Notes: generated by a model from the letters alone, not told the origin. Counted from the stretch's first letter, positions 30,983 through 46,957 are shown. The stretch: DNA of 64,000 nt from an uncultured Ignavibacteria bacterium (GCA_964593585.1 CAZQIZ010000005.1:42859-106858); one strand, 5' to 3'. A program made the numbers and translations.

Positions 30983-32698
30983 ATGACCGACATTTCCAAA
31001 CCGGCCAAGAAACCCAGTTCAGACCGTGGCCTTCTCGGACGGATCCCCGGCCTTTCGCCCAGCGTCAAGGATCTGTGGGCGGAACAGTGCACCGATGCCG
31101 ACCAGCTCGAGGGCCGCAAGTTCATCACTGTCTCCTCCGTCCCGGTCAAGGCGCTTTACACCCCCGAGGATGTCGCCGACATCGACTTCGACCGTGAGAT
31201 CGGCTACCCCGGCTTTTGGCCCTACACCCGCGGTGTGCATCTCTCGATGTACCGCCAGAAGCTGTGGACCATGCGCCAGTTTTCCGGCATGGGCTCGGCA
31301 GCGCAGACCAACGAGCGCTATCACTACCTGCTCGCCCATGGCCAGATGGGTTTGTCGGTCGCCTTCGATCTGCCCACACTGATGGGCTACGACTCCGATC
31401 ACCCGCGCTCCAAAGGCGAGGTCGGCGTCTGCGGCGTGGCGGTCGATTCGCTCAAGGATATGGAGGTCATCTTCAAGGGGATCGACCTCGGCAAGATTTC
31501 GACCTCGATGACGATCAACGCGCCCGCGGCGATCATCCTTGCCTTCTACATCGTCGTCGCCGAAAAGCAGGGAGTCAAACCCGAGCAGTTGCGCGGCACG
31601 CTTCAGAACGACATCCTGAAGGAATACATCGCCCAGAAGGAGTGGATCTTCCCGCCGCCGCCGTCGATGAAGCTGATCGTCGACACAATCGAATTCGGCA
31701 CTCATCACATGCCGCAATGGAACACCATTTCCATCTCCGGCTATCACATCCGCGAGGCGGGCGCGACGGCGGTACAGGAGCTGGCCTACACGCTCGCCGA
31801 CGGCTTCGCCTATATCGAGGCGGCGATGCAGCGCGGCTTGGATGTCGATGACTTCGCACCGCGGCTGTCGCTGTTCTTCAACTCGCACCTGGACTTCTTC
31901 GAGGAGATCGCCAAGTACCGCGCCGCGCGCAAAATCTGGGCCCGTCACCTGCGCGACCGCTACGGCGCCAAGAGCGAACGCTCCCTGCTCATGCGCTTCC
32001 ACACTCAGACCGCCGGGGTCTCGCTCACCGCGCAGCAGCCGGAAAACAACATTGTCCGCGTCACCTGGCAGGCGATGGCCGCCGCCCTCGGCGGCACCCA
32101 GTCGCTGCACACCAACTCGATGGATGAAACGCTTGCCCTGCCCTCCGAAAAGGCGGCGCTGATCGCCTTGCGCACCCAGCAACTGATTGCCTACGAAAGC
32201 GGCGTGACCAACACCATCGACCCGTTGGCGGGGTCGTATTTTGTCGAGTCGTTGACAAAACAAATGGAAGACGGCGCCGAGGAGATCTTTGCCGAAATCG
32301 AACGTCGCGGCGGCGTCCTGGCCGCGATTGAGCAGGGATACTTCCAGCGCGAACTGGCCAAGTCGGCCTATATCTATCAACAAGCGGTTGAAAAGGGCGA
32401 GCGTATCATCGTGGGCGTCAACAAGTTCACGATGGAAAACGCGGCGCTGGAAATCCCGGTGCTCAAAATCGACCCGGCCGTGGAGCGCGAGCAAATCGAG
32501 TCGCTGCGCCAACTGAAGCAGGCACGCGACAACGACAAGGTCCAGCGCACTTTGGCCGAGATGAAGGCGGTAGCCGAGCGCGGTGACAATTTGATGCCCG
32601 CCTTTATCGATTGCGCCCGGGTCTATTGTACCTTGGGAGAGATTGTGGACGTACTCCGTGGGGTGTACGGCGAGTACGAAGAACCGCCGATGATTTGA
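30983..32698 (+). CDS. icmA: B12 acyl-CoA mutase large subunit with isobutyryl-CoA mutase signature
   Basis: [24 protein letters not shown]; specificity positions WTMRQF (Phe) and EYIAQKEW (Gln). The family is secure; the ICM specificity is inferred. Confidence 0.85.
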
Positions 32699-32705
32699 GT
32701 CCTCC

Positions 32706-32785
32706 GTGGCAGCCACAAGTCTGCCGCCCACTTGCCGTCGCACATCCCCTCTCCCCGGAAGGGGAAGAGGGTGGGGTTGTGAGGG
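32706..32785. repeat. REP-like palindromes after the mutase gene
   Basis: GTGGCAGCCACAAGTCTGCCGCCCAC and CCCCTCTCCCC-GGAA-GGGGAAGAGGG-TGGGGTTGTGAGGGG. Confidence 0.55.
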
Positions 32786-32823
32786 GCTAAGACTGACGAT
32801 TTAATTGAAGCCGAACTGACGTG

Positions 32824-33570
32824 ATGGATCAACTGACCTCATACGCATTCTACGGCGGACTGGCGCTGGCGGTCATCGCCTGGGCCATCCACTTCGCCTA
32901 CCATCGCGGGCGCAAGCGAGGAGTCTCCGAGGCCGAGGGGTCGATGGCCGATCTGCCCGAGGTCAAGTGGCTCAACGGTGAGGATTCGCCCACCGGCCGG
33001 CGCTGTCTGGACTGCCGCGCTTACGCCTTAGGCGTTCAGTTGGTCACGCAGGACAAGGAAGCCCTCGAACGATTCAGCGAGAACTGCGCCTCCGACGGCA
33101 GCGAGATTGAGGGGAAGTCGCCCGACAACGCCTGGCTGGTCGCGGTCGACTGGAGTTTTGATTTCGAGCAGGCCGAAGCGATCACCGGGGGGATGCGTCC
33201 GCAGGTCGCCGAAGACATGTGGATGATCGACTGCATCGGCGCGCGCATCTACTTCCGCCGGAGCTGGTCCGGGCAACTGGTCTTCATGTCCAATTTCTCG
33301 CGTATACCGTCGGCTGGCGCCCGGATCACGCGTCTCTGGGTTCCGGGCGTAGAGCCGTTCGACCAGCAGACTCCCGAGTATCTGGCCGCGTATGTGCGCC
33401 ATCTGGTCGACACGCATTTGTTGGGCACCCTGACACCCTTCCCGATTCCGCTCGATTTTTCCGGCGACGATGAGAAGATTGCCCAGTTCGTCTTCCACTC
33501 CGTCGGACGGCGCGGCTGGCTGGCGGAGTACTTCAAACCCGACGAGCATGCCAAGGACATACACGAGTAG
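32824..33570 (+). CDS. Membrane-anchored hypothetical protein
   Basis: N-terminal TM; CLDCRAY motif; C-terminal [10 protein letters not shown]...[13 protein letters not shown] segment; normal codon usage. Confidence 0.75.
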
Positions 33571-44436: not shown

Positions 44437-44452
44437 AACAAGACGGATTTGT

Positions 44453-45352
44453 ATGCGCATCTTTGTCACCGGCGCCACCGGATACATCGGCATAAACGTC
44501 GCGCTCGCGCTGCGGCGCGCCGGCCATGAGGTCTGGGGGTTGGTGCGTTCAGCGGAGAAGGGCGTCAAGCTGACCCGGCATGAGATTCACCCTGTCGTCG
44601 GCGCCCTCGACAACATCCCCGGCTTCCTCGACGCCGTCACCCGCTGTTCGGTCATCGTGCACGCCGCCGAAGACAAGACCGACAATGAGCGCCTCGATCG
44701 CCAGTGCCTCGAGGCATTCCTCCAGATCGCCGGTAAGGGGCCGCAACCCAAGACCCTGGTCTACACCAGCGGTGTCTGGGTCTACGGCGACACCGGCAAC
44801 GCGCTGATCGATGAGACCGCGCCGCTCAATCCGGTCAAACTCAAACCGTGGCGCCCGGCCCATGAGGACATGGTGCTCAAGGCTGGTAAGATGCGCGGCA
44901 TCGTCATCCGTCCGGGGTGTGTCTATGGGCGCCAGGGGGGAATGACCGGATTCTGGTTCAAAGGACCCTCAGAGGGCAAACCGCCGCTGGTCGTCGGCGA
45001 CGGACGCAACCACTGGGCGATGATCCATGTCGACGATGTCGCTTTCGGTTATGTAAAGGCCGTGGAAAGCGGGCGTTCGTCGGAGATCTTCAACCTGACC
45101 GACCGCTCGCGCCACACCGTGCTGGAACTGGCGACCGCCGCGGCGCGCGCCGCTGGTTATCAGGGGCCGGTTCCGACCATGCCGATGGAGGAGGCGCGCG
45201 CCAAGTTCGGCCTGTTTGCCGACTGTCTCGCGCTGGACCAGCACATCGACTCGCGCAAGGCCGTGCGTGTGCTCGGCTGGCATCCGCGCCACGGCGGTTT
45301 CCTCGATGCTGTCAGCACCTATTACCAGGCCTGGAAGGCCTATCAGGGTTGA
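44453..45352 (+). CDS. NAD-dependent epimerase/dehydratase (atypical SDR)
   Basis: TGATGYIG, YTSGVWVYG, IRPGCVYG, IHVDDVA. Confidence 0.88.
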   Translation: MRIFVTGATGYIGINVALALRRAGHEVWGLVRSAEKGVKLTRHEIHPVVGALDNIPGFLDAVTRCSVIVHAAEDKTDNERLDRQCLEAFLQIAGKGPQPKTLVYTSGVWVYGDTGNALIDETAPLNPVKLKPWRPAHEDMVLKAGKMRGIVIRPGCVYGRQGGMTGFWFKGPSEGKPPLVVGDGRNHWAMIHVDDVAFGYVKAVESGRSSEIFNLTDRSRHTVLELATAAARAAGYQGPVPTMPMEEARAKFGLFADCLALDQHIDSRKAVRVLGWHPRHGGFLDAVSTYYQAWKAYQG

Positions 45353-45361
45353 GCGCCATCC

Positions 45362-46957
45362 ATGGACGATAAGCCAAAAGCCCCGCCGGTCACTTCTTCA
45401 GGAATTCCGATAGCGCCGCTGTATGATCGCTGGCCCGACGGTTTCGATCCATCGCGCGACCTCGGCGCCCCCGGCCATTACCCCTTCACGCGCGGCGTCT
45501 ACGAGGGAATGTACACCCGGCGCCTGTGGACCATGCGCCAGTACGCCGGATTTGGCACCGCGCGCGAATCCAACGCCCGCTATCGCCACCTGCTTGCGCA
45601 GGGGCAGACCGGGCTGTCAGTGGCCTTTGATCTGCCCACCCAGATGGGCTACGATTCCGACCACCGCCTGGCGCGCGGCGAAGTCGGCCGCACCGGCGTC
45701 GCCATCGACGGACTCTGGGACATGGAGGTCCTCCTCGACCAGATTCCGCTCGAACAGGTGTCGATCTCGATGACCATCAACGCGACCGCCGCTATCCTGC
45801 TGGCCCTGGTGGTCGCGGTCGCCAAACGGCGGGGAGTGCCCCTCGATGGGCTCTCCGGCACCATCCAGAACGACATTCTGAAAGAATACATCGCCCGCGG
45901 CACCTACATCTATCCGCCGAAGCCGTCGATGCGGCTGATTGCCGACACGATCCGTTACTGCCATGCGACCCTGCCGCGCTGGAATCCGATTTCGATTTCC
46001 GGCTACCATATCCGCGAGGCCGGCTCGACCGCCGCGCAAGAGATCGCCTTCACGTTGGCCAATGGCATCGCCTACGTCGACAATGCGCGCGCCGCCGGGC
46101 TGCACGTCGACGATTTCGCCCCGCGGCTCTCGTTCTTCCTGAACGTGCACAACAATCTGTTCGAGGAGATTGCCAAGTTCCGCTGCGCCCGCCGCCTCTG
46201 GGCTCGGATCATGAAGGAACGCTACGGCGCGCAGAAGGCCGAGTCGATGCGCTTCCGCTTCCACACGCAGACCGCCGGCTCCACGCTCACCGCCCAGCAG
46301 CCGCTGGTCAATGTTCCGCGCGTCACGCTGCAGGCGCTGGCGGCCGTCCTCGGCGGCACCCAGTCGCTGCACACCAACGCCTACGACGAAGCGCTGGCGC
46401 TGCCGACCGCCGAATCGGCCGAGCTGGCGTTGCGCACCCAGCAAATCATCGCCTATGAATCCGGCGCCGTCGAGACCGCCGATCCGCTCGCCGGCTCGTT
46501 CTTCATCGAATCGCTGACCAACGAACTCGAAACGCGGGTGACCGCCCTGCTCGACGCGGTCGATAAACTCGGCGGCGCGGTTGCCGCCGTCGAAAAGGGA
46601 TACTTCGCCCGCGAAATCGAACGCTCCGCCGTCGACTACCAGCGACGCATCGAAAAAGGGGAGATGACCGTCGTCGGGGTCAATCGCTTCGTCAAAGACG
46701 CGACCGCGACGGTTGCCATCGCCCATCTGGATCCGGCGCTGGAGCGCGAGCAATGCTCGCGTCTGGCCGCCGCCCGCGCGGGCCGCGATGCGGCGCAGGT
46801 TGCCGGCGCGCTGGCGCAACTGGAGACACTGGCGCGCGGCGACGGCCATCTCATGCCGCAGATCGTCGCCTGCGTCGAGGCACAGGCCACTCTCGGCGAG
46901 ATCGCCGACACTCTCCGCGCAGTCTGGGGAGAATACCAACGCGCCCAGGGCGGTTGA
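45362..46957 (+). CDS. B12 methylmalonyl-CoA mutase large subunit
   Basis: WTMRQYAGF (Tyr) and EYIARGTY (Arg) form the MCM signature; [19 protein letters not shown]. Confidence 0.92.

Follow-up and report, generated by a model that had tools for sequence, protein, structure and literature searches.

This report concerns a 64,000-nucleotide stretch of DNA from an uncultured Ignavibacteria bacterium (GCA_964593585.1 CAZQIZ010000005.1:42859-106858; hereafter the window), which encodes two large subunits of B12-dependent acyl-CoA mutases (L1 and L2), one B12-binding small subunit (S) and one G-protein chaperone, MeaB. Both L1 and L2 are members of already known enzyme kinds. Judged by its signature and its clade, L1 is the large subunit of an IcmA-type isobutyryl-CoA mutase (ICM). 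L2 is, by the same kind of evidence, an ordinary split methylmalonyl-CoA mutase (MCM), the putative catalytic subunit of a route from propionyl-CoA to succinyl-CoA. It is probable that these two adenosylcobalamin (AdoCbl)-dependent mutases belong to one conserved catabolic supercluster, in which a split ICM (L1 with S) would feed butyryl-CoA oxidation and a split MCM (L2) would work beside it; S and MeaB might serve both. The lineage that holds the cluster appears to be uncultured and Zixibacteria-like. Gene identities, signatures, clade membership and conserved synteny were computed here.

The specificity signatures of the two large subunits are opposite. L1 carries the motifs RQF-SGM and AQKEW, L2 carries RQY-AGF and ARGTY, and the two proteins are 54% identical over 521 residues. 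Each contains a single full-length MM_CoA_mutase domain (PF01642; residues 49-563 of 571 in L1) and has no room for a B12 domain. When aligned to MCM of P. shermanii (PDB 1REQ), F100 and Q218 of L1 coincide with Tyr89 (the Tyr of RQY) and Arg207 (the Arg of MVRNTY), and the catalytic His of SGYH, at the His244 position, is present in both L1 and L2. The key residues of L1 are F100, S101, G102, M103, A127, L133, Q218 and H255; L2 has Y61 and R179 at the specificity positions and the motif PTQMG. The residue pair of Streptomyces IcmA at the Tyr89/Arg207 positions is reportedly Phe80/Gln198, as Ratnatilleke and colleagues are said to have described in 1999. Two sites are named as family specificity determinants in a passage of a later paper (PMC7238569, citing Jost et al. 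2015). The residue roles given here rest on alignment to PDB chains, on PMC7238569 as a secondary citation and on general knowledge. An initial annotation of this DNA had already described the two copies as RQF/AQKEW and RQY/ARGTY; this contrast is confirmed, the gene ends match exactly and the copies fall into different clades.

The signatures are almost invariant among close relatives. RQF is found in all 120 closest homologues of L1, and Gln followed by KE in 119 of them, the remaining one having AQKKW. Likewise, RQY is found in all 120 closest homologues of L2 and ARG in 119, one sequence being unmatched by the pattern. Across a set of 72 large subunits the two specificity positions co-vary perfectly (50 F/Q, 21 Y/R, one I/Q, no F/R and no Y/Q), which speaks against chance as the origin of the signature. 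Only three alignment columns, at L1 positions 100, 133 and 218, split the F/Q from the Y/R sequences at a level of at least 90%. The third of these columns holds Leu in the PTLMG motif of the F/Q type (L1 Leu133, 31379-31381) versus Gln in the PTQ(M/I)G motif of the Y/R type (L2 Gln94, 45641-45643); it is Leu in HcmA and His in fused MCMs (PTHRG). This column may be a candidate for a so far unrecognised specificity or second-shell position.

A neighbour-joining (NJ) tree was made from the 72 large subunits, a set that is without the biochemically characterised IcmA of Streptomyces. All 50 F/Q sequences form one clade, apart from the Y/R and I/D/Q sequences, with a bootstrap value of only 54. 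L1 belongs to a Zixibacteria-lineage subclade (bootstrap 87), while L2 lies in a separate Y/R subclade together with the L2 genes of the same related genomes (bootstrap 78). The protein of Mycobacterium ELW1 that resembles 2-hydroxyisobutyryl-CoA mutase (HCM) and has the I/D/Q signature is outside the F/Q clade. A phylogeny had been proposed in the initial annotation; the tree made here separates L1 from L2 and leaves the HCM-like protein outside. A search of plasmids for characterised references yielded HCM-like proteins (Methylibium PM1, Mycobacterium ELW1), split MCM and fused MCM, and no Streptomyces IcmA or IcmF; three plasmid-borne large subunits of Streptomyces (S. parvulus, S. canus and Streptomyces sp. 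NBC_01450; H25, H27 and H28) are of the Y/R type. L1 is assigned to the IcmA type because of its F/Q signature, its place in an all-F/Q clade and the adjoining genes for MeaB and S. L2 has the MCM signature (Tyr/Arg, SGYH) and is positioned between the genes for propionyl-CoA carboxylase (PCC) and methylmalonyl-CoA epimerase (MCE).

The genes of the cluster are listed below in window coordinates, with protein lengths in amino acids (aa).

29261-29677, plus strand: glyoxalase/VOC-family protein just 5' of meaB, with no NCBIfam assignment and distinct from the MCE at 47013-47423
29863-30825, plus strand: MeaB G-protein chaperone, 320 aa (TIGR00750, 305 bits, cut-off 240.75; PF03308, 281 bits; P-loop GPPGAGKSS)
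30983-32698, plus strand: L1, putative ICM-type (IcmA-like) large subunit, 571 aa (PF01642, 752 bits)
32824-33570, plus strand: conserved hypothetical protein, predicted to be membrane-anchored, 248-249 aa (no Pfam or NCBIfam match)
33575-33988, plus strand: S, B12-binding small subunit, 137 aa (PF02310, 97 bits; TIGR00640, 169 bits)
34004-36751, minus strand: PPDK_N-domain protein, 915-934 aa (PF01326, 194 bits; no NCBIfam match)
36933-38219, minus strand: ELFV dehydrogenase resembling glutamate dehydrogenase (GDH; PF00208, PF02812; the best NCBIfam models are those of GDH, below cut-off)
38636-39799, plus strand: ACAD1, short-chain acyl-CoA dehydrogenase (ACAD; 409 bits to the model of AcrC, acryloyl-CoA reductase, below its 640-bit cut-off)
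39817-40704, plus strand: metallo-beta-lactamase (MBL)-fold hydrolase (PF00753; best model a YtnP-type lactonase, far under cut-off)
40731-42281, plus strand: acyl-CoA carboxylase carboxyltransferase, PCC beta-like (TIGR01117, 788 bits, below the equivalog cut-off; PF01039 in the gene call of the Joint Genome Institute, JGI)
42386-43909, plus strand: biotin carboxylase (NF006367, 615 bits, cut-off 597)
43930-44436, plus strand: biotin carboxyl carrier protein (PF00364 in the JGI gene call)
44453-45352, plus strand: NAD-dependent epimerase/dehydratase-family protein (PF01370), ending 9 bp before L2
45362-46957, plus strand: L2, putative split MCM-type large subunit, 531 aa (PF01642, 720 bits)
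47013-47423, plus strand: MCE (TIGR03081, 142.6 bits, cut-off 115)
47559-48929, plus strand: 3-oxoacid CoA transferase, subunits A and B (TIGR02429, 277 bits; PF01144)
48969-51085, plus strand: thiolase (acetyl-CoA C-acyltransferase; TIGR01930, 456 bits) and 3-hydroxybutyryl-CoA dehydrogenase (HBD; NF004474, 423 bits, cut-off 408)
51134-53436, plus strand: two further short-chain ACADs (Pfam ACAD domains; NCBIfam)
53601-54620, plus strand: branched-chain amino acid aminotransferase (BCAT; NF005146, 459 bits, cut-off 279)

The MeaB gene ends 158 bp 5' of the start of L1. MCE starts 55 bp 3' of L2, and the PCC subunits lie on its other side at 40731-44436. The GC content of the window is about 63%, and real genes are marked by a third-position GC of about 0.8. 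An identical S is encoded on a 125,695-bp JGI metagenome contig, of which the 64-kb window is a part. Most of the closest homologues of L1 and L2 are labelled as Zixibacteria metagenome-assembled genomes (MAGs).

The arrangement is conserved in related loci, which were labelled L003, L004 and so on to L097 for comparison with the window. The order meaB-L1-S-ACAD-MBL-PCC-L2-MCE-CoA transferase-thiolase-ACADs-BCAT was found on at least ten related contigs, each with one S. The order IMPDH-RecJ-meaB-L1-S-ACAD-MBL-PCC-L2-MCE, with one S and one MeaB each, is present in the window and in L004 (a 2.72-Mb contig), L008 (1.57 Mb), L009, L017, L019, L035, L067, L088 and L096. The most compact version is that of L088 (964,870-bp contig), which continues through the CoA transferase, thiolase, ACADs and BCAT. 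Adjacency of S and ACAD is kept in L003, L004, L008, L009, L017, L019, L021, L035 and L088; L096 has one 179-aa open reading frame (ORF) between them and L067 has an MBL gene after S instead. The MBL-fold hydrolase between ACAD1 and the PCC beta gene is kept in all related clusters, and the NAD-epimerase-family gene before L2 is present in L008 and L096 and absent in L088 and L004. The minus-strand pair at 34004-38219 (the PPDK_N and GDH-like genes), which stands between S and ACAD, looks like a lineage-specific and recent insertion, because the compact clusters L088, L008 and L004 are without it. In L003 (CP070742.1) the L1 homologue and S are about 3.4 kb apart with unrelated genes between them, no meaB is nearby, and a 74-aa ORF with an MM_CoA_mutase match (11799-12023) lies directly 3' of the L1 homologue. 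At this locus the operon seems to have been rearranged or to have decayed.

Further contexts come from a genome scan with S as the query, which took one genome per species and the best 80 loci of at least 600 matches; it detects small subunits containing one of six exact 8-mers and gives one locus per assembly among the best 80. The commonest context of these 80 loci is a meaB-L-S operon in which the large subunit has F/A/Q, usually as canonical F-AGF, and the phyla with meaB-L(F/Q)-S include Gemmatimonadota, Binataceae, WOR-3, Eisenbacteria, Planctomycetota and others. In a smaller number of loci the large subunit has Y/A/R, or S and meaB occur as a pair by themselves. An ACAD gene is near 17 of 32 F/Q loci versus none of seven Y/R loci. 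Outside the lineage, the S gene of split Y/R mutases mostly adjoins that of the large subunit or lies within about 3 kb of it. L047, the sister of the Zixibacteria L2 clade, has the order L...S-meaB-MCE-PCCB and no L1. As a separate observation, 14 of 32 F/Q-type mutase operons without MCE (L008-L087, other phyla) have a PCC beta-like carboxyltransferase gene nearby, which suggests a recurrent link of ICM-type mutases and acyl-CoA carboxylases that the propionate route leaves unexplained.

Lacking a B12 domain of its own, L2 must draw on a B12-binding subunit encoded by another gene. The most economical arrangement would be one in which the sole MeaB helps to load S with AdoCbl and S serves both L1 and L2. 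S carries the base-off/His-on motif DGHDRG (D14-x-H16-x-x-G19; DxHxxG), and its best PDB relatives are HcmB (4r3u_C, 141.6 bits) and an archaeal mutase small subunit with no assigned substrate (2yxb, 139.7 bits). It is about 62-68% identical to small subunits of either ICM-type or MCM-type operons. The initial annotation had counted one B12-binding subunit gene in the window, and tblastn over all 64 kb indeed finds only 33575-33988. It had also counted one MeaB; this holds as the number of copies found by tblastn in the window, but the gene is at 29863-30825, outside the range of 30983-46957 to which the system had been assigned. With the subunits as tblastn queries, no second small subunit or MeaB and no further large subunit was found in the whole window, and no second S was found in the next 10 kb downstream. 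The sole S of the window is 11.4 kb 5' of L2 and beside L1. The docking site of MeaB on its mutase is known to be the cobalamin-binding domain (PMC9974510, PMC10481361). That L1 and L2 share S and MeaB is plausible because synteny with one S is conserved, S is about equally similar to the small subunits of both operon types, and MeaB acts on the cobalamin domain; we rate it as about as likely as not, or slightly less. The conserved co-location of L1 and L2 with one S and one MeaB is a neat and testable hint of such sharing.

It is also conceivable, though we doubt it, that S and MeaB serve L1 only and that L2 pairs with a second S, possibly along with another MeaB, from genes in a different part of the genome, as in organisms whose mutase subunit genes lie apart; small subunits unlinked to their partners are common. 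S follows the L1 lineage in a weakly resolved S tree, the meaB-L(F/Q)-S unit is a self-contained operon in many phyla without L2 nearby, and S-meaB pairs without any large subunit within 10 kb occur at L044, L045, L053, L076 and L081. The lone L2 homologue at L097 and the fact that the window covers part of a genome only point the same way. Such a partner is, however, missing from the window and its 10-kb downstream extension, and the supercluster assemblies have no second S among the best 80 loci, though the MCM-type S of other phyla (63-67% identity) is listed there. In addition, at least ten contigs of this lineage carry L2 and S together in one co-oriented cluster. The resolution of the S tree is too low for ICM-type and MCM-type small subunits to be told apart. 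Convergence of the Zixibacteria L2 proteins toward F/Q-type residues, as an adaptation to a shared S, was considered and rejected, with one of eight discriminating positions and no signal.

Should S and MeaB indeed be shared, they could tentatively be seen as a cofactor module swapped between ICM and MCM barrels. The MCM would then have lost its own S and borrowed that of the ICM operon, and the membrane protein encoded between L1 and S might be an accessory of the module. The gene for this hypothetical protein (32824-33570) stops 4 bp before the start of S, and its product has a long N-terminal helix that resembles a membrane anchor, followed by a conserved domain of about 190 residues. Neither Pfam nor NCBIfam has a model that matches the protein. 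There are 30 homologues at 53% identity or more; those with organism names are Zixibacteria or Acidobacteriota MAGs, and several are on contigs with L1 homologues. Close homologues are confined to this lineage. The wider family is sparse, with 366 representatives at E ≤0.001 and only one at ≤1e-30, and in distant members the domain occurs in fusions with TPR or Sel1 repeats or with a dual-specificity phosphatase (DSP). An AlphaFold 2 (AF2) model built from the 30 sequences has a pLDDT of 88.9 and a pTM of 0.78 (pLDDT 36.9 for single-sequence AF2). It has no significant PDB neighbours; the weak top matches are mostly helix-grip proteins of the Aha1/START/Bet v1 type (SRPBCC), with TM-scores of at most 0.37.

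The substrates, the direction of flux and the sharing of S and MeaB are the parts of the system that we infer. L1 and S would together form a split ICM of the IcmA/IcmB type. Phe100 and Gln218 would take the place of the Tyr and Arg by which the free carboxylate of methylmalonyl-CoA is bound, so that the pocket could take the uncharged isobutyryl or n-butyryl group, and L1/S would interconvert isobutyryl-CoA and n-butyryl-CoA. Butyryl-CoA could then be converted to acetyl-CoA or acetoacetate by the ACAD, HBD, thiolase and CoA transferase of the cluster, while L2 with PCC and MCE would take propionyl-CoA to succinyl-CoA. That valine-derived isobutyryl-CoA passes to butyryl-CoA and beta-oxidation beside the propionate route had been suggested in the initial annotation, and the gene context (BCAT, three ACADs, HBD, thiolase, CoA transferase, PCC and MCE) fits this suggestion. 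It is reasonable to read the cluster as a path by which valine or isobutyrate is converted via butyryl-CoA to acetyl-CoA, because ACAD follows S in most related loci and because HBD, thiolase, CoA transferase and BCAT are in the same cluster. At a distance from these genes, an electron-transfer flavoprotein (ETF) alpha subunit gene at 4756-5829 could serve the ACADs of the cluster. The window also contains tRNA-Met and tRNA-Val genes at 23158-23391 and a bacterial RNase P RNA at 26972-27374 (257 bits). Scans of the window for promoters and terminators gave hits at chance level only, and the window has no cobalamin riboswitch.

Several points weigh against this account of two mutases that share one cofactor module. 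The F/Q clade has an NJ bootstrap of 54% and no characterised IcmA to anchor it. Sharing of S rests on the absence of a second S from what was covered, namely 64 kb of a 125.7-kb contig plus 10 kb downstream, and from a genome scan limited to six exact 8-mers and the best 80 loci. The L2 homologue at L097 (ENA contig k141_2705091, 185,167 bp; 72% identity) is isolated, none of S, meaB, MCE and PCC being encoded within 10 kb of it; therefore, unlinked partners occur in this lineage. Among the annotated ORFs of the window there is no enoyl-CoA hydratase and no enzyme that oxidises 2-oxoisovalerate or other 2-oxoacid oxidoreductase.

Less likely is a system in which L1/S runs mainly in reverse and converts butyryl-CoA to isobutyryl-CoA for valine, branched lipids or isobutyrate. 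The mutase reaction can run freely in either direction, BCAT is reversible as well, and the isomerisation of butyrate to isobutyrate is known in anaerobes (PMC10832561, PMC7764203). The neighbours are nevertheless catabolic (ACADs, thiolase, HBD, 3-oxoacid CoA transferase, PCC-MCM and GDH), and the cluster shows no ilv genes for biosynthesis.

The initial annotation had also taken the SGM of L1, in place of the usual AGF after the Phe, as a possible signal of another substrate. The comparison with relatives does not support this proposal. In the 120 closest L1 homologues the residues after the Phe are SGM in 82, SGF in 22, AGL in six and AGF in one, and SGM, SGF, AGM and AGF all occur among relatives with the same gene order. 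Only A101S and V172I consistently set the Zixibacteria-lineage clade apart from the other F/Q sequences, and position 103 within that clade is Met or Phe. SGM is thus a lineage variant that is uninformative on the substrate and lends no support to a different one. IcmF is reportedly weakly active as an isovaleryl/pivalyl-CoA mutase, an activity said to have been described by Cracan and Banerjee in 2012, and we count it for such a substrate. That L1 acts on another acyl-CoA (isovaleryl/pivalyl-CoA, 2-methylbutyryl-CoA or similar) in a pocket reshaped by Ser101 and Met103 is very improbable, even though its RQF-SGM departs from the commonest RQF-AGF and the three ACADs and BCAT of the cluster could process several branched acyl-CoAs, since the variants at these residues share one meaB-L1-S-ACAD-MBL-PCC context, the two lineage changes are both conservative, L1 holds the canonical ICM pair at the two family-wide specificity positions, and the HCM signature Ile/Asp is not in L1 (F100, A127).

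If the assignment of L1 is correct, many genes annotated as 'methylmalonyl-CoA mutase family protein' in Zixibacteria, Gemmatimonadota, Binatota, WOR-3 and other uncultured phyla would encode isobutyryl-CoA mutases. Such organisms would route the carbon of valine or isobutyrate through butyryl-CoA, and metabolic reconstructions of sediment and soil communities would change. If one S serves two catalytic subunits, the cluster would be a natural example of modular B12 enzymes and a simple system in which to study partner recognition by MeaB and the cobalamin domain.

Several known systems resemble parts of this cluster. In Streptomyces, icmA and icmB are unlinked. L1 and S are like IcmA/IcmB of Streptomyces cinnamonensis in that L1 is without a B12 domain, the separate small subunit of about 137 aa has DxHxxG, and the Phe/Gln pair is present; the likeness is one of features. 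They are unlike it in forming a linked meaB-L-(hyp)-S operon inside a catabolic cluster and in having SGM after the Phe. IcmF, the fused ICM/MeaB (PDB 4XC6), has the same three modules (B12 domain, G-protein and substrate barrel) and the F/Q signature, but it is a single chain of B12 domain, MeaB-like G domain and barrel, whereas three separate genes are found here. L1 matches the IcmF model NF045497 with 366 bits, and S and MeaB match it as well, all of them partially and far below its 1500-bit cut-off. Among solved structures, L1 is nearer to HcmA and MCM (477-543 bits) than to IcmF (300 bits). The split enzyme HcmA/HcmB (PDB 4R3U) is the best solved-structure match for L1 (543 bits), L2 (575 bits) and S (142 bits), and HcmA shares with L1 a Gln at the Arg207 position and the PTLMG motif. 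L1 and L2 were rejected as HCM candidates; the positions of HcmA Ile90/Asp117 are Phe100/Ala127 in L1 and Tyr/Ala in L2. The physiology proposed here is the same as that proposed for Slip_0757-0760 of Syntrophothermus lipocalidus, likened by the description of that cluster. It encodes N- and C-terminal mutase proteins and a MeaB-like protein in an isobutyrate degrader that isomerises its substrate to butyrate before beta-oxidation, and this split ICM cluster with MeaB is physiologically supported (PMC5017805). Unlike the window, in which no adenosyltransferase was found, the S. lipocalidus cluster also encodes that enzyme. For L2, the closest parallel drawn here is the split MCM of Ilyobacter polytropus plasmid pILYOP01. 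Its genes have the order L-S-meaB-mce-decarboxylase, whereas L2 has no adjacent S or MeaB, the sole copies of which flank L1 11-15 kb upstream. The Ilyobacter large subunit and L2 share 59% identity, and common to both are RQ/MY-AGF, ARGTY, PTQ(I/M)G and neighbouring genes for an epimerase and a carboxyltransferase.

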